Positions 1-62,973 of a stretch of DNA of 64,000 nucleotides are shown in pieces. The DNA comes from Candidatus Kapaibacterium sp. Its GTDB lineage: Bacteria; Bacteroidota; Ignavibacteria; Kapaibacteriales; JAEUSM01. The notes under the pieces are model-generated. The model saw only the letters and a program-made list of their open reading frames with translations, was not told where the DNA came from and made no database searches. The DNA lies in the NCBI GenBank assembly GCA_016788785.1, contig JAEUSM010000013.1:56771-120770 (forward strand), written 5' to 3'. Position numbers and translations under genes: made by a program. Position 1 is the first letter of the stretch, and each line of letters starts with the position of its first letter.

Positions 1-176
1 ATTGCAACTGATGCAATGAAAAAACAAAGGAGGAAGTAGCGATACATAGCTATTCTTTTTTGAATGATTTGTTGTTATAGTATTGACGTCTCTTTTTTCA
101 CTGTATTATTGATGATAAAACACTCATCAACTATAAAAGTTACAACTGAAACTATTACATCCATACTATACGTTTT

Positions 177-2531
177 TTAGTATAACGCTGATTTTACAAA
201 GAAGGTTTCCATTTCCCCTTTGCCTTTAATATAAATCATTCCTCGAGAAACAAATTCGAACTCTCCTTCATATTGTTCTAAAGCAGATTTCATTTCTTTA
301 GAAATATGAATTTTACCTGGTGAACCATGTGATTCCATTCTCGAAGCAGTATTAACGACATCTCCCCAAACATCATAGGCAATTTTCTTAGTTCCAATAA
401 CTCCGGCTACCGTTTCACCAGTATGAATGCCTATTCTCATTAAGAGATTAAGTCCCTCTTTTTCTATGAATTTTTTAATCCATTGTGAACAATCGATAGC
501 AAATTTTGTAATTAAATATGCATGATGTTCTTGATATTCTGGCACTCCTGATGCAACCATATAAGCATCACCAATGGTTTTGATTTTCTCTAAACCATAC
601 CGTTCTGCTATTGTATCAAATTCTGTAAAAATAGTAGAAAGTAGCTGCACAATTTTGACAGGATCAGAACTTTTTGCATATTCGGTAAAACCTGCTAAAT
701 CTGCAAAAAGGATGGTTGTATGAGGAAATTTTTCCGCAATGAGTTTTTCACCTTCTTTAAGCCGTTGAGAAATACTCTTTGGCAAAATGGTATCTAAAAG
801 TCGCTCTGTCTCACGATTTGCAAGTATCAACTCATCATTTTTTATAGCCAATTCTTGTGTTTGTTTTGCTACTTCATCTCGCAAGGATTGATTATAATTT
901 TTGAGTAACTCTTCTGCTTGTTTTTGTTCTGATATATCGCGAATGAATGCTGAAAAAGAATACGTATTTTCTGTTTTAATTGGCAAAATTGTTAACTCTA
1001 CTGGAATTATAACTCCATCTTTTCGAATTGCTGTTATTTCAATTCTAGAATGAAGCACCTTGTATTCTCCAGTAGTCATGAAACGTTGCAATCCTTTTTC
1101 ATGAGCTATTCGATATTCAGGTGGTATAATAAAATCAGAAAGCTTATTGCCAAGTACTTCTTCTGAAGTCCAACCAAATATTTTTTCTGCTTGTGGATTC
1201 CAAGTAGTAACATTACCATTTTGATCCATTGAAATAACTCCGTCAAGTGCAGAATCCAAAATTTGTTTCATACGTTCATTGGAAAGCTGTTGTTCAGACA
1301 TCTTCACATTTGCCAAATCCAATTGAATTACCATTGATTGTAACTTAGAATTTTTTTCTTTACTTTCAGATTCAATTTGAATTTCATCATACCGTTTGAA
1401 ATACACCAATGCATCTTTATAGTTACCTTGCAGTTCCAATAACTGAGAATGCATCTTATATGCTTGCAATCTCATTACAGGATTATCTTCAATATCTAAC
1501 AGTGAATAGGTTGCTTCTAATATTTCTTCTGTTTTTTCATAGTTTTTCAATTCAAAATACAAAAAACCAATGAGTAAATTGTTTGAGATTCTTTGACTAA
1601 ACAATGGCAGTTTGTCTAAATACAATTGTGTCTCTTGAGCAAATTTTAGAGCTTGTTCAAACTTTTTTTGTGAATAGAAAACAGTTGCTTTTGAATGCAA
1701 TACACTTGCCAAATACCGTTTTTCTTCAATATTTGATGTAAGACTTATTGCCTCATCAAGTAGTTCATCGATTTCTTGATAATATTCTAAATCCCTATAA
1801 ACTTCAACTAAATTTTTTATTCCATTACAATATCCATCAATGATAGATAGATGTTTACATATCTCTATAGACTCTTTGAAATACTCTATTGCACGCTTTA
1901 TATTATCAAATTTGTAGCTTAATGTTCCCAAGTTGTGAAGCAACTGTGCTTTTAAATGTGCGTCTTTCGATTTATGAGTATATTCTAAACTTTTGTGATA
2001 GTATTTGAATGATTCTTGATATTCCTTTTTCGTATCATGAATCATTCCTAATAACATAAATGAATATGCCAATCCTTTATCATCATTTCGATGATTTTTA
2101 ATTTGTATGCTTTTAAATGAAGTTTCAATTGCTTCATCAAATAGTTTTACTTGAAAATAAGCACGTGAAAGGTTACTATAGACTATTGCTAAATCTCGAG
2201 AGGAATCATTCACATCAAAAATCGAAATTGCTTTTTGAAAACAAGGAATTGCTTCTTGGAAGTATTCTAAATTTATTAGCAGTTTCCCAACTTGAATTGA
2301 ATATTCCTTGACTATTTCATGGTCGTTTTGAGCTTCAGCTAACGCAATTATTTCGTAATAACATGAAATAGCTTGTTCATAATCGTGAACTGCACTAAAC
2401 TCTTCAATAGTAGTTTGAAGTGTTTGTAATTGTTTTTGATAATTTTTCTGTTCCAATGTTTTTATTTCAATTATTGGGGTGTTTTTTAGGCGTTTGATTA
2501 CTAATTTACTACTATTTATTGCCGTGAACAA
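177..2531 (-). CDS. TPR-repeat / PAS-domain / class III adenylate (nucleotidyl) cyclase
   Basis: 784-aa ORF. The N-terminus has TPR-like repeats and a central PAS-like segment ('LDSALDGVISMDQNGNVTTWNPQAEKIFGW...'). The C-terminal class III cyclase catalytic domain carries the diagnostic motifs 'ILFADLAGFTEY', 'IKTIGDAYMVASG' and 'RIGIHTGETVAGVIG...YDVWGDVVNTASRMES'. Confidence 0.85.
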   Translation of the reverse strand: MFTAINSSKLVIKRLKNTPIIEIKTLEQKNYQKQLQTLQTTIEEFSAVHDYEQAISCYYEIIALAEAQNDHEIVKEYSIQVGKLLINLEYFQEAIPCFQKAISIFDVNDSSRDLAIVYSNLSRAYFQVKLFDEAIETSFKSIQIKNHRNDDKGLAYSFMLLGMIHDTKKEYQESFKYYHKSLEYTHKSKDAHLKAQLLHNLGTLSYKFDNIKRAIEYFKESIEICKHLSIIDGYCNGIKNLVEVYRDLEYYQEIDELLDEAISLTSNIEEKRYLASVLHSKATVFYSQKKFEQALKFAQETQLYLDKLPLFSQRISNNLLIGFLYFELKNYEKTEEILEATYSLLDIEDNPVMRLQAYKMHSQLLELQGNYKDALVYFKRYDEIQIESESKEKNSKLQSMVIQLDLANVKMSEQQLSNERMKQILDSALDGVISMDQNGNVTTWNPQAEKIFGWTSEEVLGNKLSDFIIPPEYRIAHEKGLQRFMTTGEYKVLHSRIEITAIRKDGVIIPVELTILPIKTENTYSFSAFIRDISEQKQAEELLKNYNQSLRDEVAKQTQELAIKNDELILANRETERLLDTILPKSISQRLKEGEKLIAEKFPHTTILFADLAGFTEYAKSSDPVKIVQLLSTIFTEFDTIAERYGLEKIKTIGDAYMVASGVPEYQEHHAYLITKFAIDCSQWIKKFIEKEGLNLLMRIGIHTGETVAGVIGTKKIAYDVWGDVVNTASRMESHGSPGKIHISKEMKSALEQYEGEFEFVSRGMIYIKGKGEMETFFVKSALY

Positions 2532-5045: not shown

Positions 5046-5169
5046 AACAATTCCAAATTAAAATCACGTTGTTGAATTAGAACTAAAAACGAAGAACACC
5101 TAAATTCTAATAGAAAATAAACCTATTTTTTTTCAAAATTAGCAACAATTGTCAAAAAATGAAGAAATA

Positions 5170-5295
5170 CAATTTCCTCCAAAGGAGGGGAATTTGACCG
5201 ATAAACTGTAGAAACAAGGCATGCCCTGTCCCTACAAAAACACGATAACACCCTCGCCCCTATGGGGAGAGGGATGGGGAGAGGGGTCATTTACA
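5170..5295. repeat. GC-rich mosaic hairpin array 1, comprising a short CCTCC-AAA-GGAGG hairpin, a degenerate 30-bp palindrome and the 'CCCTCGCCCC-N-GGGGAGAGGG-TGGGGAGAGGGG' module
   Basis: The span 5251-5290 'ccctcgcccctatggggagagggatggggagaggggtcat' recurs at 13863, 16005 (reverse complement), 32938, 34806 and 53013 (reverse complement). The span 5206-5240 is a degenerate copy of the perfect palindrome at 34973. Local GC is far above the flanking AT-rich DNA. Confidence 0.8.
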
Positions 5296-5303
5296 ATGAT
5301 ACC

Positions 5304-10149: not shown

Positions 10150-10436
10150 TAGCGAAGCAAGAGTGTAAAAAGAATGATAAGTAGGTCTCTTTATTGGTAA
10201 GTGTCATTTTTTAGCAAAAAAGTGACATTTGAAGAAAAAATATTTCATTTTTCTGTATTTTGTTGAATATGTTGACCACACAAAACTATCAAAAATCAAT
10301 TCTATATCGTAATAACAATTGAAAAAAATAAAAATCCCAACTATTTTCAAATTTTGTTTGAAAGTGTGGGATTATGGGTTATGTTATTTTTGATATTTTT
10401 TCGATTTCGTGAAATTGGATTTTTTTTGATTCAGAA

Positions 10437-10610
10437 TGCCCCCTCACCCCAGCCCTCACCCTCGTAGGGGAGAGGGAGTTGATTTTTGGTGGAAAGTTGT
10501 TCTATAAATATGTGACCACTCCGTGTCAAGAGAAGCCACCCCGCCACACTTCGACTTCGCTCAGTGACCAGTGGCACCCCTCCTAATTTAGGAGGGGAGT
10601 TTGACCCCAC
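10437..10610. repeat. GC-rich mosaic hairpin array 2
   Basis: The span 10437-10488 'cccctcaccccagccctcaccctcgtaggggagagggag' matches module A-prime at 34726 and the reverse complement at 53146. The span 10535-10581 'gccaccccgccacacttcgacttcgctcagtgaccagtggcacccc' matches module D, with reverse-complement copies at 32882 and 34914 and a variant at 53246. The span 10575-10597 holds the perfect hairpin 'cccctcctaatttaggagggg'. Confidence 0.8.
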
Positions 10611-13052: not shown

Positions 13053-13655
13053 TTATTGCATTTGCAAAAACATTGCCTCCACTGCAGCAAGGCTATTGGA
13101 CACTTCAGCACCTTCATCACAAAACATTCGTTTCGATTGAATGAGTGTAACAATCCCATGGACAGTACCCCAGATATACAACGAAGCAGCATACACATCG
13201 GTTTTCGCCAAATATCCATCATCCATACATTGTTGCACACTGGATACCAAGGCTTGAAACGAAGCAGCACTCACAGGAATATCATTATCCTTTTCTACGT
13301 GCTTCATTGGAGATTTTAGTACAAACATAATCTCATACATTGCTGGATTTTCAAATGCAAATTCGATATATTCTCTGGCATGCTGTTTCATTCGTTCTAA
13401 CGAATCTTCAATGGTCGCAAGTTTTTGCTGACGATGATAAAACAATTCGAACCCTTGTTTGAACAGTGAGAAAAATATCTCGTCTTTATCTTTGAAATAA
13501 AGGTACAATGTACCAACACTGTATTCAATAGCATCTGCAATGGTACGCATCGACACGTTCTCGAAGCCTAATTGCACAAATAATTTGAGGGAAGTTTCCA
13601 AAATGAGTTTCCTCATTTCTTCCTTTTCACGCTCTCTTCTTTCTACGATACCCAT
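13053..13655 (-). CDS. TetR/AcrR-family transcriptional regulator
   Basis: The N-terminus carries a TetR HTH ('ETSLKLFVQLGFENVSMRTIADAIEYSVGTLYLYFKDKDEIF'), and the protein is 200 aa long. Confidence 0.85.
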   Translation of the reverse strand: MGIVERREREKEEMRKLILETSLKLFVQLGFENVSMRTIADAIEYSVGTLYLYFKDKDEIFFSLFKQGFELFYHRQQKLATIEDSLERMKQHAREYIEFAFENPAMYEIMFVLKSPMKHVEKDNDIPVSAASFQALVSSVQQCMDDGYLAKTDVYAASLYIWGTVHGIVTLIQSKRMFCDEGAEVSNSLAAVEAMFLQMQ

Positions 13656-13749: not shown

Positions 13750-13905
13750 TCCACCCTTGTGTAGCGGAGTCATCATCGCAAACCGTAGAGACGCAAAATT
13801 TTGCGTCTCTACAAAAAGTACATCCAATACTCTTCCAAAGGAGGAAATCAAAAAAAAACATCTCCCTCGCCCCTTTGGGGAGAGGGTCGGGGAGAGGGGT
13901 TTCTC
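13750..13905. repeat. GC-rich mosaic hairpin array 3
   Basis: The span 13785-13811 is the perfect palindrome 'tagagacgcaaaattttgcgtctcta' (module C). The span 13830-13850 reads 'ctcttccaaaggaggaaatc', and 13863-13900 is module A ('ccctcgcccctttggggagagggtcggggagaggggt'). The array lies between the TetR gene start and the 3' end of adenylate cyclase gene 2. Confidence 0.8.
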
Positions 13906-13924
13906 TGCATTAAAAGTATTTAAC

Positions 13925-15898
13925 TTACTTCCCTTTCTCCAACCAAAATGTGTTCATTGTTCCTTTTCCTTTAATGGAAATTTCTCCACGTGGAATGAGT
14001 GAAAATTCTTGGTGTGATTCGATGGATTTTGCGAATTGTTCACTGATGTGGATGCGACCGGCCTCTGAGTTTGATTCCATTCGTGAGGCTACATTTACTG
14101 CATCGCCCCATAGGTCATAGGTGTATTTGTTTTTGCCAATGATACCTGCAACGACTTCACCAGTGTGAATACCGATGCGAATTTCGATGTTGTTCATATT
14201 CTTTATCCATTCAGTAGCACCCAAATCTGATGGAATATTGACTACAAAATCTTTCATAGTTTCGAGAAGTTGCAGCGCAGCAAGTGCGGTTGCTTTTTGG
14301 TGTTCTTTGAGCGGAGTAGTCACATTCGCTACAGCCAAATACCCATCACCAATGGTTTTTATTTTTTCTAAACCAAAGGTTTCCACCACTTCATCTGCTT
14401 TTTGGAAAATTGCATCGAGTAAGAAGACAAGTTGTTTTGGTGGTGCAATGGATGCGAGTGTTGTAAACCCAACCAAATCCATAAAAAGTACAGAAGCAGT
14501 TTCAAAGTGGTCGGCAATAGGATTTTCACCCTTTACCAAACGATCTGTTACAGAATCAGGAAGTATATTTCGAAGGATACTTTCTCGCCCTAATAATTTT
14601 CCTCGTTCTTCAGCTATTTTAATTTCTTGTTCCGCTAATTTACGTTGGAGGTGAAAATTATCTGCTTGTTTTTTTGCTTCGATAGTTTGGATTTCTTTTT
14701 CTAAGGAAACGAATTTTTTGTGATATTCTAAAGATTCTTCAAATCTCATTTCATTTTGTCGTAACGTATGAATATGTTCATATGCATCTTTAATTATATC
14801 TTTTGCACCGATTTCTTCTGCAAGTAGTAGCGACTTTTGCAAATATTCTTCTGCTTTTTTTGTATCATAGTACGCTGATTCTTTTGTTGAGTATACACTT
14901 CCGATATTTCCGAGATTTTTTGCAATAGTATTTTTTCTCCCAATTACTTGGGAGATTTGTAAAGCTTTTGAGTAAAATTCCAAGGCTTGTGAGTCATCAG
15001 AAAGTTCCTTGTATACATTACCAATATTTCCAAGATTTGTAGCAATACCATCATTGTTTCTACTTTCTTCATTGATGTGTAAAGCTTTTGAATAATACTC
15101 TAACGCTTTGGGGTAGTCTGAAAGTTTTTTGTAAATAACTCCAATATTACCAAGGTTAGATGCAATACCATTTTTGTTTCCAATTTCTTTATTTATATGT
15201 AAAGTTTGATGAAAATACTCTAAGGCTTTTTGGTAATCAGAAAGATTTGCGTAAACAGTCCCAATATTACCAAGCGCATTTGCTTGAAATTGCTTATGTC
15301 CTATTTCTTCTGTGATTAATAATGCCTTTCCATAGAACTCTAATGCTTTCTGATAGTCAGAAAGTTCCTTGAAAACATTACCAATATTCACCAAATTTCC
15401 ACTAATTTCACCTTTATTTCCAATTTCTTCATTAATAAGTAGTGCTTTTGAATAAAACTCTAATGCATTTGGATATTCTGATAGATACCATTTAACACTC
15501 CCAATATTCCCAAAGTTTCTAGCAATTCCATTTTTGTTGCCAATTTCTTCAAAAATTTTTAACGCTTTTGAAAAATACTCTAAAGCTTTAGGGTAGTCTG
15601 AAAGAATCTGGTAAACTATACCAATATTCCCAAGATTATTTGCAATTTCACCTTTGTTTCCTCTTTTTTCATAGATGTGTAGTGATTTTTCATAATATTC
15701 TATTGCTTTGAAACAGTCTGAAAGATAACTGTATATAGCCCCAAGATAACTACAGACCTTTGCAAGTGAATTAGGGTCTTCTTGGATTGCTTTATTCTCT
15801 ATGAGTTCTTCAGCAAATGATTTTGCTTCTTGATTTTGTGATTTATTCACCAAATCTTTTAATTTTTCAATTGAGGCATTTATATCTTCGGGAGTCAT
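13925..15898 (-). CDS. TPR-repeat class III adenylate cyclase (paralogue 2)
   Basis: The 657-aa protein has about eight 40-aa TPR-like units ('NLGNIG.VY..LSDYPKALEYYSKAL.I.EEIGNK.GIA.'), then a coiled-coil and a cyclase catalytic domain ('VLFMDLVGFT', 'IKTIGDGYLAV', 'RIGIHTGEVVAGIIGKNKYTYDLWGDAVNVASRMES'). It is roughly 88% identical at the DNA level to 50935..52974 in the C-terminal half. Confidence 0.85.
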   Translation of the reverse strand: MTPEDINASIEKLKDLVNKSQNQEAKSFAEELIENKAIQEDPNSLAKVCSYLGAIYSYLSDCFKAIEYYEKSLHIYEKRGNKGEIANNLGNIGIVYQILSDYPKALEYFSKALKIFEEIGNKNGIARNFGNIGSVKWYLSEYPNALEFYSKALLINEEIGNKGEISGNLVNIGNVFKELSDYQKALEFYGKALLITEEIGHKQFQANALGNIGTVYANLSDYQKALEYFHQTLHINKEIGNKNGIASNLGNIGVIYKKLSDYPKALEYYSKALHINEESRNNDGIATNLGNIGNVYKELSDDSQALEFYSKALQISQVIGRKNTIAKNLGNIGSVYSTKESAYYDTKKAEEYLQKSLLLAEEIGAKDIIKDAYEHIHTLRQNEMRFEESLEYHKKFVSLEKEIQTIEAKKQADNFHLQRKLAEQEIKIAEERGKLLGRESILRNILPDSVTDRLVKGENPIADHFETASVLFMDLVGFTTLASIAPPKQLVFLLDAIFQKADEVVETFGLEKIKTIGDGYLAVANVTTPLKEHQKATALAALQLLETMKDFVVNIPSDLGATEWIKNMNNIEIRIGIHTGEVVAGIIGKNKYTYDLWGDAVNVASRMESNSEAGRIHISEQFAKSIESHQEFSLIPRGEISIKGKGTMNTFWLEKGK

Positions 15899-15929
15899 AG
15901 TTTTGTTGGAAGGTTGTATTGGTTTTTTG

Positions 15930-16245
15930 TCGTACGAATATACGAAAATAAGGGCATTCAGCCACTATCTAAAGATAGTGGAAATTCAAAACATTAGAAC
16001 ATGTACCCCCTCTCCCCGTACCCTCTCCCCAAAGGGGCGAGGGAGTTATCGTGTTTTTTGTAGTGACGCACAATTTGCATCTCTGAAGAAACCACCCCGA
16101 CCTTCGGTCACCCTTCCAAAGGAGGGGAATAGACCAACAACCCACAATTTCCAACATAGGGCTTACACTCTATGCAGTGATAGTACGCCCCTTCAGGGCT
16201 TGACCTCTCTGATTTTTGAGACGCCCATATAGGGCGTCTCTACGA
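15930..16245. repeat. GC-rich mosaic hairpin array 4, in the divergent intergenic region between adenylate cyclase 2 and nnr
   Basis: Module B 'gccactatctaaagatagtgg' is at 15961-15981 and module A (reverse complement) at 16005-16045. A degenerate module C is at 16058-16090, followed by 'ccttccaaaggaggggaa' and module G 'gccccttcagggcttgacc' at 16194-16214. The module C palindrome 'gagacgcccatatagggcgtctc' sits at 16217-16241. The first ~130 bp are collinear with array 7 (52950-53100). Confidence 0.8.
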
Positions 16246-32768: not shown

Positions 32769-33024
32769 TGTTCGGTCTTTCACGATGGGTTAAAACCCAT
32801 CGCTACAAAAGGAAGCCCCTTCAGGGCTTGACCGGAAAACAGTAAAGACAGTGTCAGAAGATAAGTTCCCCGCTTGAGGGGTGCCACCGGTCACTGAGCG
32901 TAGTCGAAGTGTGGCGGGGTGGAATCTGAAGAAAATCTTCCTCTCCCCTTTGAGGGAGAGGGATGGGGTTAGGGGGTATTCGGAATAAAACGGGCAACCG
33001 TAAATGTTGCCCGTACTTTTTTTG
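32738..33024. repeat. GC-rich mosaic hairpin array 5
   Basis: Terminator module F is followed by the hairpin 'gatgggttaaaacccatc' (32783-32800) and module G 'gccccttcagggcttgacc' (32813-32834). Module E 'ccccgcttgagggg' is at 32869-32882 and module D (reverse complement) at 32882-32925. Module A 'cctctcccctttgagggagagggatggggttaggggg' is at 32938-32975, and the terminator-like 'acgggcaaccgtaaatgttgcccgt' plus a T7 run is at 32990-33024. Confidence 0.8.
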
Positions 33025-34689: not shown

Positions 34690-34720
34690 GGGGCGAAAGA
34701 AATTTCGCCCCTTTTTTTTA
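34690..34720 (+). terminator. intrinsic terminator (second copy of module F)
   Basis: The sequence 'ggggcgaaagaaatttcgcccctttttttt' begins 29 nt after the stop of 33117..34661. Confidence 0.8.
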
Positions 34721-35005
34721 TATTACCCCTCACCCCAGCCCTCTCCCTCAAAGGGAGAGGGAGTTTACTAATAACATTCTCTAATATTTCAAAATATAGG
34801 TTGTTCCCTCGCCCCATTGGGGAGAGGGTTAGGGAGAGGGGGTTTTTCTTCATAAATGGGCGTAAGCAATACGCCCCTACAATACCAATAAACGATAAGT
34901 TCCCCTCTTGAGGGGTGTCACCGGTCACTGATCGTAGTCGAAGTGTGGCGGGGTGGAATCGTCATCGAAACGTGTAGAGACAGGGCATGCCCTGTCTCTA
35001 CAAAA
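34690..35005. repeat. GC-rich mosaic hairpin array 6
   Basis: Module F is followed by module A-prime (34726-34765) and module A (34806-34845). The hairpin 'gggcgtaagcaatacgccc' is at 34858-34877, module E 'cccctcttgagggg' at 34902-34915 and module D (reverse complement) at 34914-34958. A perfect 30-bp palindrome 'tgtagagacagggcatgccctgtctctaca' occupies 34973-35002. Confidence 0.8.
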
Positions 35006-38180: not shown

Positions 38181-39659
38181 ATGAATTCAAATACAGAACA
38201 ACCGAAACTAATTACCAAACTTCAATTTGTTGATCTTGATGGCACTTTGATCACTTCAGACTGCCTTTGGGAAACCTTTTTACTATTTCTTAAAAAGAAC
38301 CCTTTTAATGGTCTAATTGCTATTTGGTGGTTAATTTCTGGTGGAAAAGCTCATTTGAAACATTCAATTGCAAAAAATGTCACTTTACAACCTTCACTTC
38401 TTCCATACAATCAAGATGTAATAGAATTTATAAAGGTTCAAAAAAGTTTGGGAGCTACCATTGTTTTGGCTACTGCAACGAATAAAAGCATTGCTAATCA
38501 AATTGCTGAGCATATTGGCTTATTTGACGATGTGATTGCTTCAGATGAAACAACGAATGTTCGTGGTTCAACCAAGAAGGAACTCCTTACAACCTACGCA
38601 AATGGTCAAGAGTATGTCTATTATGGAAATAGTACGGTAGATCTTCCAGTTTGGTCAGGATGTAACCATGCTATAGTTGTTTCTTCATCACAAAATTTGG
38701 TTCAGAAAGCATCTTTAGATGGAAAAGAAATATATCATATCCCAATCAACTCTTCATTTTTTCCAGCATTAGTAAAACAAATGCGAATATATCAATGGGT
38801 GAAAAACAGCTTAATTTTTATTCCGTTGTTTTTAGCACATAAGGTTAGTATTGATTTGTGGATTGATGGTTTGTTAGCGTTTTTTGCTTTCGGTTTTGCT
38901 GCATCAAGTGTTTATGTTGTCAATGATTTATTGGATTTAGAATCTGACCGACAACATCACCGCAAAAAAAATCGTCCATTTGCTTCTGGTGTGTTATCTA
39001 TTCCATTCGGAATTGCATTATTTCCTTTACTATTGGTGATTGCATTTTCAATTTCTGCAGTGTTGTTGCCACCATTATTTACGTTATTCTTGGGTATTTA
39101 TCTTGTCATTACAACCCTGTATTCCTTTGTGTTAAAAAAGATTGTAATGATAGATGTGCTGACTCTTTCATGGCTCTATACCCATAGAGTATTTGCAGGA
39201 GCAGTTGCAACAGATACTCCTATTTCTCCATGGTTACTACTTTTTGCTATCTTTCTATTTCTTTCTTTAGCATTTGTAAAACGTTACTCTGAACTTTTAG
39301 TCGCAGTTGAACAAAATAAAACGAAAGCATCAGGCAGAGGGTATTTCACGTCCGACTCACCGTTGATTGCAAGTGTTGGACCGGTGAGTGGATATTTGGG
39401 AGTTTTTGTCTTCTTTTTGTATATTAACTCCCCAGAAGTAGTTGCTCTGTATTCTTTTCCAATGCTCTTGTGGCTGGTAGGACCATTGTTACTGTATTGG
39501 ATTTCGCGAATTTGGGTAATAACCATTCGTGGCAATATGCACGATGACCCAATTGTTTTTACTATGAAAGATCCTGTGAGCTATTTCATTGGTTTTTGTA
39601 CATTTCTCATAGTTACTTTAGCAAGCATTCTTCCTAAACTTACTTTTTTTACACGATGA
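38181..39659 (+). CDS. fusion protein: N-terminal HAD-superfamily phosphatase + C-terminal UbiA-family polyprenyl-phosphate phosphoribosyltransferase (Rv3806c-like)
   Basis: The N-terminus carries HAD motif I 'LQFVDLDGTLITSD'. The C-terminal ~300 aa are polytopic and carry the UbiA motif 'VVNDLLDLESDRQHHRKKNRPFASG' after 'QWVKNSLIFIPLFLA'. The gene is operonic with a DprE1 orthologue. Confidence 0.7.
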   Translation: MNSNTEQPKLITKLQFVDLDGTLITSDCLWETFLLFLKKNPFNGLIAIWWLISGGKAHLKHSIAKNVTLQPSLLPYNQDVIEFIKVQKSLGATIVLATATNKSIANQIAEHIGLFDDVIASDETTNVRGSTKKELLTTYANGQEYVYYGNSTVDLPVWSGCNHAIVVSSSQNLVQKASLDGKEIYHIPINSSFFPALVKQMRIYQWVKNSLIFIPLFLAHKVSIDLWIDGLLAFFAFGFAASSVYVVNDLLDLESDRQHHRKKNRPFASGVLSIPFGIALFPLLLVIAFSISAVLLPPLFTLFLGIYLVITTLYSFVLKKIVMIDVLTLSWLYTHRVFAGAVATDTPISPWLLLFAIFLFLSLAFVKRYSELLVAVEQNKTKASGRGYFTSDSPLIASVGPVSGYLGVFVFFLYINSPEVVALYSFPMLLWLVGPLLLYWISRIWVITIRGNMHDDPIVFTMKDPVSYFIGFCTFLIVTLASILPKLTFFTR

Positions 39660-40216
39660 ACCAAGTATATTCATCCATTGAAGCAGGATTGGAACAACCA
39701 CAATTGGTTTCTTCCTTGCAGTTGTCAAAACAACGATTAGAAATTTTGCCTACTTCCATTGGTGCATTTACAAATCTGACACTGCTCAATCTTTGGCTTA
39801 ATAATCTAACAACATTACCCGAGGAGATAGCTCAGCTGCACTATCTTATAACCATTGATATAAGTAATAATAATTTTTTGACATTTCCAGAAGTATTATT
39901 TTCTGAAGGTCTTCAAAATCTAAAAAACATCAATGCCCGATTTTTACAATTAGAATCACTTCCGTTAGATATACAAAAGATTACAAAATTGGAAAGTTTA
40001 GACCTTACGGGAAATAAATTAACATCTTTACCTGAGGAAATTGGGAATCTGGAACATCTTTCGATGCTTCGATTAAATCAAAACCAAATACAAACACTTC
40101 CAAAGTCATTACAACATTGTAAGAAGTTGAAAGTTTTACATATTCAGAATAATCCCATTGTAAGTAAAGAAGAAATTCAGTCATGTGTTCCTGAAACGTG
40201 CGTAATCGTATTTTAA
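39656..40216 (+). CDS. small leucine-rich-repeat (LRR) protein
   Basis: The 186-aa protein has about six LRRs ('LTLLNLWLNNLTTLPEEI', 'LESLDLTGNKLTSLPEEIGNLEHLSMLRLNQNQIQTLPKSL'). Its start overlaps the upstream stop (ATGA at 39656) and its 3' end overlaps the DprE1 gene start by 19 nt. Confidence 0.6.
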   Translation: MNQVYSSIEAGLEQPQLVSSLQLSKQRLEILPTSIGAFTNLTLLNLWLNNLTTLPEEIAQLHYLITIDISNNNFLTFPEVLFSEGLQNLKNINARFLQLESLPLDIQKITKLESLDLTGNKLTSLPEEIGNLEHLSMLRLNQNQIQTLPKSLQHCKKLKVLHIQNNPIVSKEEIQSCVPETCVIVF

Positions 40217-50855: not shown

Positions 50856-50934
50856 ACATAACATTTCTATAAACGGCTGAGGTTCTCGAAGCCATTGTAA
50901 TTATAACGGTGGTTTCGAGTGCCTCAACCACCCT

Positions 50935-52974
50935 TTACTTCCCCTTTTCCAACCAAAAGGTATTCATTGTTCCTTTGCCTTTTATGGAAATTTCTCCTCT
51001 GGGTATGAGTGAGAATTCTGGGTATGATTCGATTGATTTTGCAAATTGTTCGCTGATGTGGATACGACCAGCTTCTGAGTTAGATTCCATACGTGAGGCT
51101 ACGTTTACTGCATCTCCCCAGAGGTCATAGGTGTATTTGTTTTTGCCGATGATACCTGCAACGACTTCACCTGTGTGGATTCCAATGCGAATTTCGATAT
51201 CGTTCATATCCTTTATCCAATTGGTATCACCCAAATCTGATGGAATATTGACGACAAAGTCTCGCATTGTTATGAGAAGTTGGAGTGCAGCTTGGGCAGT
51301 TGCTTTTTGGTGATTTTCGAGGGGAGTTGTTACATTGCCTACTGCCAAATACCCATCACCAATGGTTTTGATTTTTTCTAAACCGAATGTTTCAACCACT
51401 TCATCCGCTTTTTGGAAGATAGCGTCAAGAAGATAAACAATTTGCTTTGGTGGTGCAATCGAGGCAAGTGACGTAAACCCAACCAAATCCATAAAAAGAA
51501 CAGAAGCAGTTTCAAAGTGGTCGGCAATAGGATTTTCGCCCTTTACTAAGCGATCAGTTACAGAATCAGGAAGTATATTTCGAAGAATACTTTCACGTTC
51601 TTCGTATCTTGCTCTTTCAACAGCTATTTGTTTTTCACGTTCAGCTGTTTTACGTTCATTGTCAAATCGATCTGCTTGTTTTTTTGCTTCGATGGATTGA
51701 ATTTCTTTTTCGAGTGCTATAGATTTAGTTTGAAATTCTAAAGCTTCTTTATAATGTTCTTCGTTTAGTCTAAGCTTATGTAATTGTTCATAAGCTTCTT
51801 TTCTTACAACTTTTGCACCTATTTCCTCAGCTAAAACTAACGATTTTTGAAGATACACTTCTGCTTTTTTTACATCATAGTATGTTGATTCTTTGGTTGC
51901 ATAAACAGACCCAATATTCCCAAGGTTACTTGCAATACCGACTTTATTCCCAATTTCTTCATTGATGTGAAATGCTTTTGAGTAATACTCTATAGCTTTG
52001 GGGTAGTCCGAAAGACTCTTGTAAACAATCCCAATATTCCCAAGGTTTATTGCAATCCCAACTTTGTTTCCAATTTCTTCATTGATATGTAATGCTTTTG
52101 TATAATACTCTAATGCTTTGGGGTAGTCTGAAAGATTCCAGTAAACAATCCCAATATTCATAAGGTTAGTTGCAATTCCAACTTTATTCCCAATTTCTTC
52201 AAAAATAGGTAATGCTTTTGAGTAATACTCTAATGCTTTTGGGTAGTCCGATAGATTAGAATAAACATTCCCAATACTCACAAGGTTACTTACAATTCCT
52301 AATTTGTTTCCAATTTCTTCAAAAATAAGTAATGCTTTTGAATAATACTCTAATGCTTTGGGGTAGTCCGAAAGATCTGAGTAAACAAGCCCAATATTCC
52401 CAAGGTTAGCTGCATTACCATATTTACTTCCAATTTCTTCACCGATGTGTAATGCTTTTGAGTAATACTCTAATGCTTTGGGGTAGTCCGAAAGATAATT
52501 ATAAACATTCCCAATATTCCCAAGGTTACTTGCAATACCAACCTTGTTTCCAATTTCTTCTAATATGAGTAATGCTTTTGAATAATACTCTAATGCTTTG
52601 GGGTAGTCCGAAAGATCTGAGTAAACAAGCCCAATATTCCCAAGGACACTAGCAATACCTCTTTTGTTTTCAATTTCTTCAGAGATAAGCAATGACTTTG
52701 AAAGATACTCTAATGCTTTGGGGTAGTCCGAAAGATTCCAGTAAACAATCCCAAGTGAATTATAGACCTCTGCAAGAGATTTGGCATCGTCTTGGATTGC
52801 TTGTTGTTCCAAGAGTTCGTAAGCAAATACCTTTGCTTCTTGATTTTGAGAAGTTCTCCAAAGATTATCTAATTTTTCTTTTGCTTGTTGTATTTCTTCG
52901 GGTGTCATTACGGTTTTGGAAGGTTGCATTGGATTTTGTCGTACGAATATACAAAAATAACGACATTCAGCCAC
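50935..52974 (-). CDS. TPR-repeat class III adenylate cyclase (paralogue 3)
   Basis: The 679-aa protein has a catalytic domain almost identical to that of 13925..15898 ('ILPDSVTDRLVKGENPIADHFETASVLFMDLVGFT...IKTIGDGYLAV...RIGIHTGEVVAGIIGKNKYTYDLWGDAVNVASRMES'). It contains about seven near-identical 40-aa TPR units. Confidence 0.85.
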   Translation of the reverse strand: MAECRYFCIFVRQNPMQPSKTVMTPEEIQQAKEKLDNLWRTSQNQEAKVFAYELLEQQAIQDDAKSLAEVYNSLGIVYWNLSDYPKALEYLSKSLLISEEIENKRGIASVLGNIGLVYSDLSDYPKALEYYSKALLILEEIGNKVGIASNLGNIGNVYNYLSDYPKALEYYSKALHIGEEIGSKYGNAANLGNIGLVYSDLSDYPKALEYYSKALLIFEEIGNKLGIVSNLVSIGNVYSNLSDYPKALEYYSKALPIFEEIGNKVGIATNLMNIGIVYWNLSDYPKALEYYTKALHINEEIGNKVGIAINLGNIGIVYKSLSDYPKAIEYYSKAFHINEEIGNKVGIASNLGNIGSVYATKESTYYDVKKAEVYLQKSLVLAEEIGAKVVRKEAYEQLHKLRLNEEHYKEALEFQTKSIALEKEIQSIEAKKQADRFDNERKTAEREKQIAVERARYEERESILRNILPDSVTDRLVKGENPIADHFETASVLFMDLVGFTSLASIAPPKQIVYLLDAIFQKADEVVETFGLEKIKTIGDGYLAVGNVTTPLENHQKATAQAALQLLITMRDFVVNIPSDLGDTNWIKDMNDIEIRIGIHTGEVVAGIIGKNKYTYDLWGDAVNVASRMESNSEAGRIHISEQFAKSIESYPEFSLIPRGEISIKGKGTMNTFWLEKGK
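51895..52765 (-). repeat. about seven tandem copies of a 120-bp (40-codon) repeat inside the adenylate cyclase 3 coding sequence
   Basis: The 120-bp unit 'caatttcttc...aatgcttttgagtaatactctaatgctttggggtagtccgaaagat...gtaaacaa.cccaatattcccaaggtta.ttgcaat.cc.a.tttgtttc' recurs with roughly 85-95% identity. Each copy encodes one 'NLGNIG.VY.(N/D)LSDYPKALEYYSKAL' unit. Confidence 0.85.
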
Positions 52975-53300
52975 TATCTAAAGATAGTGGCACTTCGTAT
53001 ATGGAAATTTGTCCCCCCTCTCCCCGTACCCTCTCCCCAAAGGGGCGAGGGAGTTGTTTTGTTCTTGTAGAGACGCACGGACGTGCGTCTCTGAAGATTC
53101 CACCCCGCCATTTAATGGCACCCCTCAAGAGGGGAACCCAAAGATATCTCCCTCTCCCCTTGAGGGAGAGGGTTGGGGTGAGGGGTCATTCTGAATCAAT
53201 GGGCAGACTCGTAGGTCTGCCCCTATAAAATTTCAAAAAAGTTCGACCTCGCCACATTACGACTACGCTCAGTGACCATGGCAGTCCTTAAGAGGGGAAC
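52950..53300. repeat. GC-rich mosaic hairpin array 7
   Basis: Module B 'gccactatctaaagatagtggc' is at 52970-52991 and module A (reverse complement) at 53013-53053. Module C 'gagacgcacggacgtgcgtctc' is at 53070-53091 and the hairpin 'gccatttaatggc' at 53107-53119. Module E 'cccctcaagagggg' is at 53122-53135 and module A-prime (reverse complement) at 53146-53190. The hairpin 'gggcagactcgtaggtctgccc' is at 53200-53222, module D at 53246-53283 and module E 'ccttaagagggg' at 53286-53297. Confidence 0.8.
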
Positions 53301-60996: not shown

Positions 60997-62973
60997 TTAT
61001 TCAACTATTTCTTCGTGATTTTTGGGTAATGAACATAAAATTCTCCAACCCTCACGTATTAGTTTCATAGTCTTTTCAATTTCATTTTCTTCCAAAGGAT
61101 TATCTACCAAATCAATGGTTATATCTTTGTTCGTTCGTTGTTGTGCAAATTTTGGAAGTTTTCGAAGTTCATTTTTTGAAATATACACAAATTCCAATTT
61201 GGGAAAATTTTGTATTTCAATTAAACTAATCTGATTATTTGAGCAAATCAATCGTTGAAGCCGTGAAAATTTCTTTCCTTTGAGTTGCACCTCCTGAATT
61301 GAATTGGAGCTAATGTCTATGACTTCAAGAAGTTTACATTCTAAAAGTTCATTCGGAAAAAATTCTAAAGAACATGAACGCAATGAAATGGAATGCAACT
61401 GTTTACAATGGAGTAATGGTGCAACATTCGTAAGAACTTCATCAGTGATTTGTAATGATTTGAGAGATGGTAGTTTTTCAATACCATCAAGTAATTGAAT
61501 TCCTGTTGACCGCAACGCAAGTGAATGTAATTTTTTTGAGACCACTCCAATTTCTGTAATATTTGATAGTGCAAACCCTGCAATAGTTACTTCTTCTAAT
61601 GAGGTATTCGAAGAGAATTGAATGGAATGCAAAGACGAATTCAAATTGAAATTTTCCAAAGAAAGTTTTTTGAGAGAACGAATTTTCGTGATTTTTTTAT
61701 ACAAATCATTAGAAAATTCGTATTCTAATTGAGAAATCGAAATCGAACAACATTGAGGAAATTTCATTCGATACATTGGTGAGTTTTTCGAAGGAACGAT
61801 TTTTACATCTGAAATAAGAAGGAATTGCAATTTCGGCAGCGATTCTATCAAGGTACAAAAATCTTGTTCTGATATTTCGCAATGAAGTAAGGACAAATAT
61901 CTAACCGAAAGGAGTGTTGAAGCAGTAAACGAGAAAATTTCACAATGTTGTACGGACAGGTATTGCAATTCATTCAATGATTTCAAATTCTCAAGTTTCA
62001 GAGTCAATGCATCAATATTTTTCATCACAATTCCGGAAATTGTTTCGAAAAATTCTGGTCGAAATTGCTCCTCCACTAACGAAGCAACCACCATCGATGC
62101 TTGTTTGGAAGCTAATAATTCTTGTGTTGTTGGTATGGTTGTAAGCTGGTATGCAGTCTCTTGAAACAATTGACCATTCATAGACACTGTTTCTAAAAAA
62201 GCAGAAACATCGTGAAAAAACTTTGGATTGTAGCTGTATTTCGTGGGTTGTTTGAACCAATGCAATCGCAAAGCATCTTTTTGTTCATCATTGAGATATT
62301 CTTTCAAATATTCTCGAGCTTGTAATCGAATTGCTTTCGAGCTTCCGAAAAGTTCTAATGCAAAGAGTGATGTCGTGATTTCATCTATTGACAAATTGTT
62401 TTGTTGGTTGGATTGCTGAAGAACTGAATTGACAAATTCTTTGACAACCAGTACATTTGTTTGAATTTGTTGAATTGAATACCGTTCAAAATATCGTTTT
62501 AGATGATATTCAACCGTCATCGGGAGTCCAAGATGTGTACACAATGACAACTCTTTTTCATTTGGTCGAACACCTAAAAGAATATGAGAATAGCGTTCTT
62601 CATTCTTTTTGGAGAAATGCTCAATGTTCCAACCAAGAGATTGTACCATTTGTTGTATAGATGGTAAGGAAAAACACAAAAGATTCCCGCAGATACCAAT
62701 GAAAACAGTATCGTTGTTAGACAGATTTTTGAAAGGATTTTCTAAAAGAAAACTCAATGAATTGAGAGCATGTGTTGCATTTTGAGCATTCCCAATTGAT
62801 AAGATTTCCAATTGTTGTTCAACGGAGGTTACTGATTCGGTGTAAACTGGATTGTAAAATTCGTCGGAATTGAAAAACGGTTGGAACGATGAATGTTTGG
62901 AAACACCCCTTCTGTTTTTTTCTTTGTATTTTGAGCGATAATCGTTGACAAATGGGTCAGGAAACTTCGACAT
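60997..62973 (-). CDS. large cytoplasmic leucine-rich-repeat protein
   Basis: The C-terminal ~300 aa contain more than ten LRRs ('LKSLQITDEVLTNVAPLLHCKQLHSISLRSCSLEFFPNELLECKLLEVIDISSNSIQEV', 'LQRLICSNNQISLIEIQNFPKLEFVYISKNELRKLP'). The N-terminal ~350 aa have no recognised domain. Confidence 0.6.
   Translation of the reverse strand: MSKFPDPFVNDYRSKYKEKNRRGVSKHSSFQPFFNSDEFYNPVYTESVTSVEQQLEILSIGNAQNATHALNSLSFLLENPFKNLSNNDTVFIGICGNLLCFSLPSIQQMVQSLGWNIEHFSKKNEERYSHILLGVRPNEKELSLCTHLGLPMTVEYHLKRYFERYSIQQIQTNVLVVKEFVNSVLQQSNQQNNLSIDEITTSLFALELFGSSKAIRLQAREYLKEYLNDEQKDALRLHWFKQPTKYSYNPKFFHDVSAFLETVSMNGQLFQETAYQLTTIPTTQELLASKQASMVVASLVEEQFRPEFFETISGIVMKNIDALTLKLENLKSLNELQYLSVQHCEIFSFTASTLLSVRYLSLLHCEISEQDFCTLIESLPKLQFLLISDVKIVPSKNSPMYRMKFPQCCSISISQLEYEFSNDLYKKITKIRSLKKLSLENFNLNSSLHSIQFSSNTSLEEVTIAGFALSNITEIGVVSKKLHSLALRSTGIQLLDGIEKLPSLKSLQITDEVLTNVAPLLHCKQLHSISLRSCSLEFFPNELLECKLLEVIDISSNSIQEVQLKGKKFSRLQRLICSNNQISLIEIQNFPKLEFVYISKNELRKLPKFAQQRTNKDITIDLVDNPLEENEIEKTMKLIREGWRILCSLPKNHEEIVE

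Follow-up and report, generated by a model that had tools for sequence, protein, structure and literature searches.

A 64-kb stretch of DNA from Candidatus Kapaibacterium sp. (contig JAEUSM010000013.1, positions 56,771 to 120,770; hereafter the window, meaning the whole stretch analysed) carries two genes, here called A and B, whose products join an array of tetratricopeptide repeats (TPR) to a class III adenylate cyclase, and the likeness of the two genes continues past their start codons into upstream DNA rich in hairpins. How did a gene and its non-coding flank come to be shared between two places in one genome? The original prediction held that the gene and the proximal part of its hairpin array had been duplicated together and the arrays remodelled afterwards, such that array change, being faster than coding-sequence divergence, would supply a relative timescale. 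The observation behind that prediction was partly confirmed by our analysis and its interpretation is partly supported. We consider it likely that A and B are paralogues of ancient origin, that both inherited one cis-regulatory cassette, and that this cassette has been kept under constraint while the DNA around it diverged.

Two colinear loci of old divergence

The two genes are as follows.

13925-15898, minus strand: gene A, 657 aa; TPR (about eight units of 40 aa), coiled-coil linker and class III adenylate cyclase; soluble
50935-52908, minus strand: gene B, 657 aa; paralogue of A with the same architecture; start codon ATG at 52908

At the DNA level both regions align as one colinear blastn high-scoring segment pair (HSP), 13925-16099 versus 50935-53107, with 78% identity over 2186 columns, bearing out their predicted paralogy. 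The HSP starts exactly at both stop codons, the 3' flanks of A and B being unrelated, and at its other end passes the start codons into 5' intergenic DNA, again as predicted, although the shared upstream stretch is about 200 nt long (to 16099/53107) and not ~130. The upstream strings on which the claim was built were found at 15933-15983 and 52941-52992. Similarity is not confined to the coding repeats: the upstream regions aligned alone (15906-16099 versus 52916-53107) are 84.1% identical over 195 columns (E 5.7e-55), and the off-diagonal HSPs reflect the repetition, within each gene, of a 120-nt TPR unit. The predicted identity of 88% is right for the stretch that had been sampled (52/60) but only when 14001-14060 is paired with 51011-51070; against 51021-51080, the partner originally named, which lies 10 nt out of register, 18/60 positions agree, and identity overall is 77-78%. 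By segment, nucleotide identity is highest in the cyclase (86%, 503/583) and lower in the linker (75%), the TPR part (73%) and the N-terminus (70%). The longest identical run within the coding sequence is 38 nt, and the longest of all, 42 nt, is a non-coding hairpin designated the P module.

Silent sites speak to the age of this divergence. At fourfold-degenerate positions A and B are 58% identical (110/190), where composition alone leads one to expect about 31%. When the two genes were compared with family members on four other metagenome contigs (loci elsewhere are given L numbers, and homologous proteins the letter P with four digits), A, B, L046, L048, L049 and L132 proved mutually equidistant, at 71-81% amino acid identity and 0.47-0.64 at fourfold sites. 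The foreign proteins nearest to B (P0014 at 80%, P0006 and P0007 at 78%) are closer to it than is A, the A and B proteins being colinear, gapless and 74% (73.5%) identical. In a neighbour-joining tree of the linker and cyclase region, none of 200 bootstraps united A with B, and the commonest partners of A were P0006 (L048) or P0034. Neutral-like similarity on both sides of the open reading frame (ORF), the mark of a recent copy, is likewise missing, since the 3' side shows none and on the 5' side the modules exceed the coding level and the spacer is at the neutral level. Judged from these comparisons of sequence, A and B belong to an old radiation and not to a recent segmental duplication.

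The family itself is large. Our tally of homologues at E below 1e-50 reached 1931, and in Kapabacteria the family is greatly expanded, contigs bearing several members each and tandem triplets whose stop and start codons overlap. Members fall into length classes 40 aa apart (537, 577, 617, 657 and 698 aa). On other Kapabacteria contigs the cyclase paralogues stand in tandem runs of two or three genes (L046 1-4974; L049 1501-4734; L172 8001-13373); in the window A and B are solitary and 35 kb apart. The flanks of L132 and L049 showed no synteny with the window, which ruled out an argument from positional orthology. The A protein is identical to P0001 of an NCBI metagenome-assembled genome (MAG) labelled 'Candidatus Kapabacteria bacterium', and B equals P0008 from the same contig.

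Both proteins match Pfam TPR_12 (PF13424; 6.5e-63 for A and 5.5e-74 for B, six stretches in each) and Guanylate_cyc (PF00211; 175.4 bits, 1.1e-51, for A and 172.6 bits for B, against a cut-off of 21.9). The nearest solved structures for the cyclase domain are the adenylate cyclases (ACs) AC9, AC8 and AC5 and mycobacterial Cya, and in alignment to AC9 C1/C2 the motifs FMDLVGFT, KTIGDGY and YDLWGDAVNVASRME are present. The roles of cyclase residues are known from mammalian AC structures; the metal-binding aspartates we take to be those of FMDLVGFT and IGDGY, the adenine-contacting lysine and aspartate pair those of KTIGD and YDLWG, and the transition-state asparagine and arginine pair those of AVN and ASRME. 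A and B are each predicted to be a homodimeric cAMP synthase, with the TPR array likely serving as a regulatory or partner-binding module. The start of B, which a gapless alignment with A and the homologues and a conserved non-coding leader locate, is by that reading the ATG at 52908 and not the GTG at 52974 given by the mechanical ORF list. Within the TPR part, a 120-nt periodicity of the DNA in both genes corresponds to the 40-aa units; those of B (51876-52776) are on average 71% and at most 89% alike, those of A (14866-15766) 60% on average, which suggests intragenic homogenisation of the units.

The upstream cassette and what may hold it constant

The region shared upstream is a series of modules. 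Gene sense for A and B is the minus strand, and cassette order is given from distal to proximal: R, G, an A-rich linker, P, a spacer of ~23 nt, a palindrome, a candidate -7 box, a leader and the ATG. Its parts, listed from the gene outwards, are as follows.

15899-15951, minus strand: leader and candidate -7 box of A, in gene sense TTATTTTCGTATATTCGTACGAC..CCAATA.AACCTTCC..ATG
52909-52960, minus strand: leader and candidate -7 box of B, TATTTTTG
15961-15982, unstranded: palindrome of A, CCACTATCT-nn-AGATAGTGG, perfect; arms 15962-15970 and 15973-15981
52970-52991, unstranded: palindrome of B with 10-nt arms, GCCACTATCT-nn-AGATAGTGGC
15983-16005, unstranded: spacer of A from palindrome to P, with neutral-level divergence
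16006-16047, minus strand: P module of A, a GC-rich hairpin, in gene sense CTCCCTCGCCCCTTTGGGGAGAGGGTACGGGGAGAGGGGG
53014-53055, minus strand: P module of B, an exact 42-nt match to that of A
16061-16089, minus strand: G' module of A, a decayed GTAG/CTAC-tagged hairpin
53067-53095, minus strand: G module of B, an intact GTAG-tagged hairpin GTAGAGACGCACGGACGTGCGTCTCT; arms 53069-53079 and 53082-53092
16090-16131, minus strand: R module of A, TTCCCCTC...GGGGTGG; the last segment common to A and B (alignment end 16099/53107)
53096-53140, minus strand: R module of B, a hairpin
Between palindrome and leader: TTATTTT(C/T)GTATATTCGTACGAC with TAnnTTTG-like boxes
Leader, about 45 nt: CCAAT..AACCTTCC, then ATG

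The order, orientation and spacing of all these parts, from R through to the ORF, are equal in A and B, in support of the view that a gene and the flank next to it were inherited as a unit. Their conservation is uneven. The P modules agree at 42/42 positions, the palindrome segments at 28/31, leader and box at 43/53 and the G modules at 24/30; the parts between modules have drifted much further, with 12/23 in the spacer and 7/13 in the linker, and in other pairs of loci spacer identity is 25-55%. The palindrome of A lies 64-85 nt upstream of the ATG and folds as RNA at -10.5 kcal/mol (z -3.6). The intact G of B folds at -17.5 kcal/mol (z -5.7) and the G' of A at -6.8 kcal/mol (z -0.9), a decay that fits an old shared insertion.

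The cassette is not peculiar to this genome. In a comparison of nine upstream regions from several samples, it was found ahead of homologues at L172, L132, L049 and L048; leader and box are 73-87% identical in all cross-genome pairs measured, and the palindrome is intact in A, B, L132 and L172 and degenerate in L049. Across the 1.17 Mb searched, the palindrome turned up nowhere but ahead of class-I cyclase genes. In a second class of promoter (L048, L046, L171, L173), a G-type hairpin or what remains of one takes the place of the palindrome. At L172 the elements G, linker, P, spacer, palindrome, box and leader follow in the order of A and B with the same variant of P, and the composite of G, linker and P also stands upstream of L172, L171 and L173. 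The P of A and B matches that of L132 at 39/42 and that of L048 at 37/43 positions. GGGTACGGGG (the TAC variant) is common to the P copies nearest the promoter in A, B, L172 and L048 and is private to them, other P copies reading TCG, ATG, TTAG, TTG or TCAG; such a private variant argues for common descent of the promoter-proximal copy over repeated insertion from a general pool, of which further members stand in the window at 5251, 13864, 34761, 34806 and 53150.

Two wider scans bear on this distribution. Among the at least 120 stretches summarised from a metagenome scan with the 16-mer TTYGTATATTCGTACG (L051-L170 as loci), only L132 is a true family member, and the remaining matches listed are nearly all chance or an unrelated ATTCGTA repeat. 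A scan of genome contigs returned only distant relatives, at most 52% identical, among which neither P modules nor the leader motif were found (a single weak match with three mismatches, at L012, apart) and the palindrome, seen only in the close loci, occurred in none. The ATTCGTA-unit repeats (ACGAATATACGAA ... TTCGTATATTCGTACG ATTCGTAATTCGTAG), carried by L062, L105, L128 and L147 among other unrelated metagenome contigs, appear to be a different dispersed repeat family of other organisms.

We propose, in explanation, that A and B are two old members of an expanded Kapabacteria family of soluble TPR and class IIIa adenylate cyclase proteins, whose ancestral gene would already have possessed the upstream cassette, each duplication copying cassette and ORF together. 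Silent sites and spacers would since have drifted towards saturation, with the leader, -7 box, palindrome and P remaining nearly constant, most likely because the paralogues share a cis-regulatory unit under purifying selection. We infer that the cassette is functional from the way modules contrast with spacers and from the conservation across genomes. In such a unit the palindrome would be the operator for a dimeric regulator co-controlling the class-I paralogues, the -7 box, of Bacteroidota type, and the leader would direct the initiation of transcription and translation, and the P hairpin may be a structural or boundary element or a protein-binding site. Further upstream, the arrays are mosaics of modules resembling repetitive extragenic palindromes (REPs) and bacterial interspersed mosaic elements (BIMEs), differing between A and B. 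Scanning for sigma-70 promoters gave no match ahead of A, nor any on the gene strand ahead of B; five genes of the window are preceded, at 36-47 nt, by a TAnnTTTG box. A TetR-family regulator gene (13053-13655, minus strand) sits directly downstream of A with a hairpin array between, and its product might bind the palindrome, but B lacks a neighbour of this kind. P was considered as an intrinsic terminator and rejected, since in neither orientation does a T-tract follow the stem directly; terminator-like matches fall only in the inverted P copy of B and beside an element upstream of A that is described below.

A flank more conserved than the coding sequence looks selected or continually homogenised, not like a decaying relic, and cannot act as a clock. 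Gene conversion between the 5' regions of A and B would make their likeness a product of recent intragenomic DNA exchange and not of selection. It would readily yield a P identical at every position, and a G'/G shared by A and B alone among the first six loci compared; moreover, repeat-rich paralogues are prone to conversion and the TPR units of B are homogenised. A converted tract would nevertheless have had to skip the neutral spacer in its middle, the identity of A and B in leader (81%) and palindrome (90%) is no higher than that seen across genomes (85% for A and L132, 94% for B and L132), L172 in another genome has the same P variant and the same order of G, P and palindrome, and the G of A has decayed relative to that of B. 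Conversion may add to the perfect match of P, but as the explanation of the shared flank we regard it as unlikely.

We assign a similarly small chance to independent insertion, in which a mobile composite resembling a REP or a miniature inverted-repeat transposable element (G, linker and P, with R) would have entered both loci by target-site preference and only the 95-nt promoter region would be shared by descent. Hairpin mosaics are indeed scattered through the intergenic DNA of the window (5150-5300, 10430-10610, 13750-13910, 32780-32990, 34700-35000 and 53000-53300, within a total of about seven arrays); their modules, P, R and the GTAG-tagged G/Y, are GC-rich in an AT-rich genome (the window has about 35% GC) and occur in all kinds of intergenic context. 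A composite recurs in which a hairpin ending in CTAC is followed by AAAAACACGATAA and then by P, also away from cyclases, and the composite and its modules are dispersed at 5207-5290, 13785-13900 and 34700-35000 and at several places in L132, L171 and L173. Palindromes of 20-40 bp bearing the GTAG tag, a tag of REPs thought to be mobilised by REP-associated tyrosine transposases (RAYTs; PMC3733652), are found among the G/Y modules (13785, 16243 on the minus strand, 32806 minus, 34880 minus, 34974 and 53067), P and R not being of this kind. Against such insertion, A, B and L172 agree in order, orientation and distance from the palindrome, only promoter-proximal copies of P have the TAC variant, the G of A is degenerate and its insertion thus not recent, and no RAYT (Y1 transposase) was found among ten small ORFs of the 64-kb window. 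Module order also bears on three ORFs of 81-178 aa in the mechanical list (15903-16232, 52692-53228 and 13757-14002, all on the plus strand), which, since that order differs between loci, are probably not genes but by-products of GC-rich sequence in AT-rich surroundings.

Distal arrays and an Acido-Lenti-1-like element

Beyond 16099/53107 the arrays of A and B differ in module order, as had been predicted.

16150-16206, plus strand: A-only two-hairpin element resembling Acido-Lenti-1 (hereafter AL1), antisense to A
16213-16245, minus strand: A-only G1 module, a GTAG-tagged hairpin GTAGAGACGCCCTATATGGGCGTCTC
53143-53300, unstranded: B-only distal array, with an inverted P copy (53143-53190), a hairpin (53197-53226) and a long R module (53238-53300)

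The order within the distal array of B is unrelated to that of A, and its pieces match modules at 10426, 13860, 32889, 32935 and 34725. The distal array of A (G1, AL1, R, P) is colinear with that of L048, with 32/33 matches in G1, 46/54 in AL1, 46/55 in linker and P and 48/55 in the leader beside 3/7, 11/23 and 15/58 in the spacers and 62% identity at silent sites. The upstream neighbour genes of A and L048 differ, so the array travels with the gene, and as far as these alignments reach it is more stable than silent sites over the timescale that separates A from L048.

With this the fairly recent segmental duplication of a gene with ~130 bp of array, whose flank would be a passive relic and whose arrays would change faster than coding sequence, becomes highly improbable: the colinear similarity through the 5' flank and the divergent distal arrays agree with it, but silent sites only 58% identical, a flank (84%) above the coding sequence (77%), an invariant P beside a neutral spacer, the presence of the cassette in other genomes, the failure of A and B ever to appear as sisters, foreign proteins nearer to B than A is, and an array at A still colinear with L048 at 62% silent-site identity all contradict it. 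The proposed use of the flank as a clock for the turnover of hairpin arrays fails on the same grounds.

Several points weigh against our own reading of A and B as ancient paralogues with a constrained cassette. The tree has a star-like shape and poor resolution, the TPR repeats have been homogenised within genes (units of B up to 89% alike), and the source genome was seen in part, through the 64 kb of the window, which belongs to a contig of 134.7 kb. The promoter assignment, the operator and the role of P are ones that we infer from sequence, and the enrichment of TAnnTTTG upstream of genes is weak (nine matches; 1.6 versus 0.69 per kb). The composite of G, linker and P also stands away from cyclase genes, at 5207-5290 of the window, and mobile elements may have contributed to it; the perfect agreement of P within one genome could in part reflect gene conversion.

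The AL1 element of A matches the Acido-Lenti-1 family (RF01687) at 16155-16200 on the plus strand with 33.8 bits (E 6.5e-4 over the window as a whole), short of the gathering score, which is 37; the L048 copy, colinear with that of A, and the L049 copy score 49.2 and 45.1 bits, both above it. Among five sequences, 7 of 12 base pairs show compensatory changes, and the covariation extends to both hairpins. A model (R1) built from AL1 copies retrieved six copies in 299 kb, that in L171 lying outside the training set:

16150-16206, plus strand: window
32778-32834, plus strand: window
168-224, minus strand: L048
1349-1405, minus strand: L049
2627-2686, minus strand: L173
7711-7769, minus strand: L171

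Five of the six lie within 300 nt upstream of TPR-cyclase genes, antisense to the gene. No AL1 was found in 149 kb of more distant loci, and an Rfam search at the gathering score returned nothing in the window or in those 149 kb. Other sub-threshold Rfam matches in the window look like terminator or low-complexity artefacts and were set aside.

Two further observations concern repeats near these genes and elsewhere in the window. Immediately 3' of B stands a 54-nt long-hairpin element (50875-50928, -34 kcal/mol), which is 100% identical, in reversed orientation, to L049 1251-1304, 5' of the gene for the P0019 cyclase in another metagenome. Another family of repeat proteins is represented by leucine-rich-repeat proteins (LRR_4, LRR_8) encoded at 60997-62973 (minus strand) and 39656-40216 (plus strand).

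Significance and relation to known systems

The finding is in itself ordinary, an old paralogous family having kept a common regulatory region. Its interest lies in two directions. First, Kapabacteria have a very large family of TPR cyclases whose members have promoter, leader and operator-like palindrome in common, which suggests that cAMP signalling is coordinated in this uncultured lineage. Second, REP-like modules that are kept in sequence and position beyond the saturation of silent sites, while spacers decay, are unusual for supposed mobile filler, and the conservation of the modules and the link of Acido-Lenti-1 to the TPR-cyclase family are worth following. It is conceivable, if rather doubtful, that P, G and AL1-like modules are domesticated, sequence-constrained cis-elements, or specify a divergently made small RNA, acting on a cAMP-signalling family, and are not selfish filler; if true, REP-like repeats and the orphan Acido-Lenti-1 motif would thereby gain a concrete role in regulation. 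The cyclase promoters offer a tractable place to ask what hairpin modules and Acido-Lenti-1 do.

As a general principle, paralogous regulons arise when operator and promoter are copied along with a gene. The loci described here resemble such regulons in having a perfect palindrome whose distance from the start codon is fixed and which is confined to one gene family, and differ from them in that a second promoter class is present and in that the palindrome does not correspond to the CRP consensus of E. coli. Class III adenylate cyclases with sensor or scaffold domains at the N-terminus have undergone lineage-specific expansion in, for example, mycobacteria, Leptospira, rhizobia and cyanobacteria, and the present family shares with them a Guanylate_cyc domain with adenylate-specific residues, a modular N-terminus (TPR_12) and many paralogues per genome. 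It is set apart from them by its restriction to Kapabacteria and Ignavibacteria-like MAGs, its length steps of whole TPR units and its shared promoter and leader cassette; in the library of papers searched, none names Kapabacteria and adenylate cyclase together.

Acido-Lenti-1 was described for Acidobacteria and Lentisphaerae as a motif without known function (Weinberg et al. 2010, PMC2864571). The AL1 copies have the same two-hairpin architecture and covarying pairs, but here they stand within REP-like arrays near cyclases, and the window copy scores below the gathering threshold. GTAG-tagged REPs, for their part, assemble into BIME mosaics, and RAYTs are thought to mobilise them (PMC3733652, PMC2817692); a survey of REPs reports GTAG repeats in Proteobacteria, Cyanobacteria, Chloroflexi and the Planctomycetes-Verrucomicrobia-Chlamydiae group and only CGTC in Bacteroidetes and Chlorobi. 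The arrays of the window are like these in being extragenic GC-rich palindromes of 20-40 nt, with a GTAG start in the G/Y modules, that form mosaics of varying order and orientation. They are unlike them in that the tag of the G modules is paired with a 3' CTAC and P and R have no tag, and in that individual copies keep their position across genomes.

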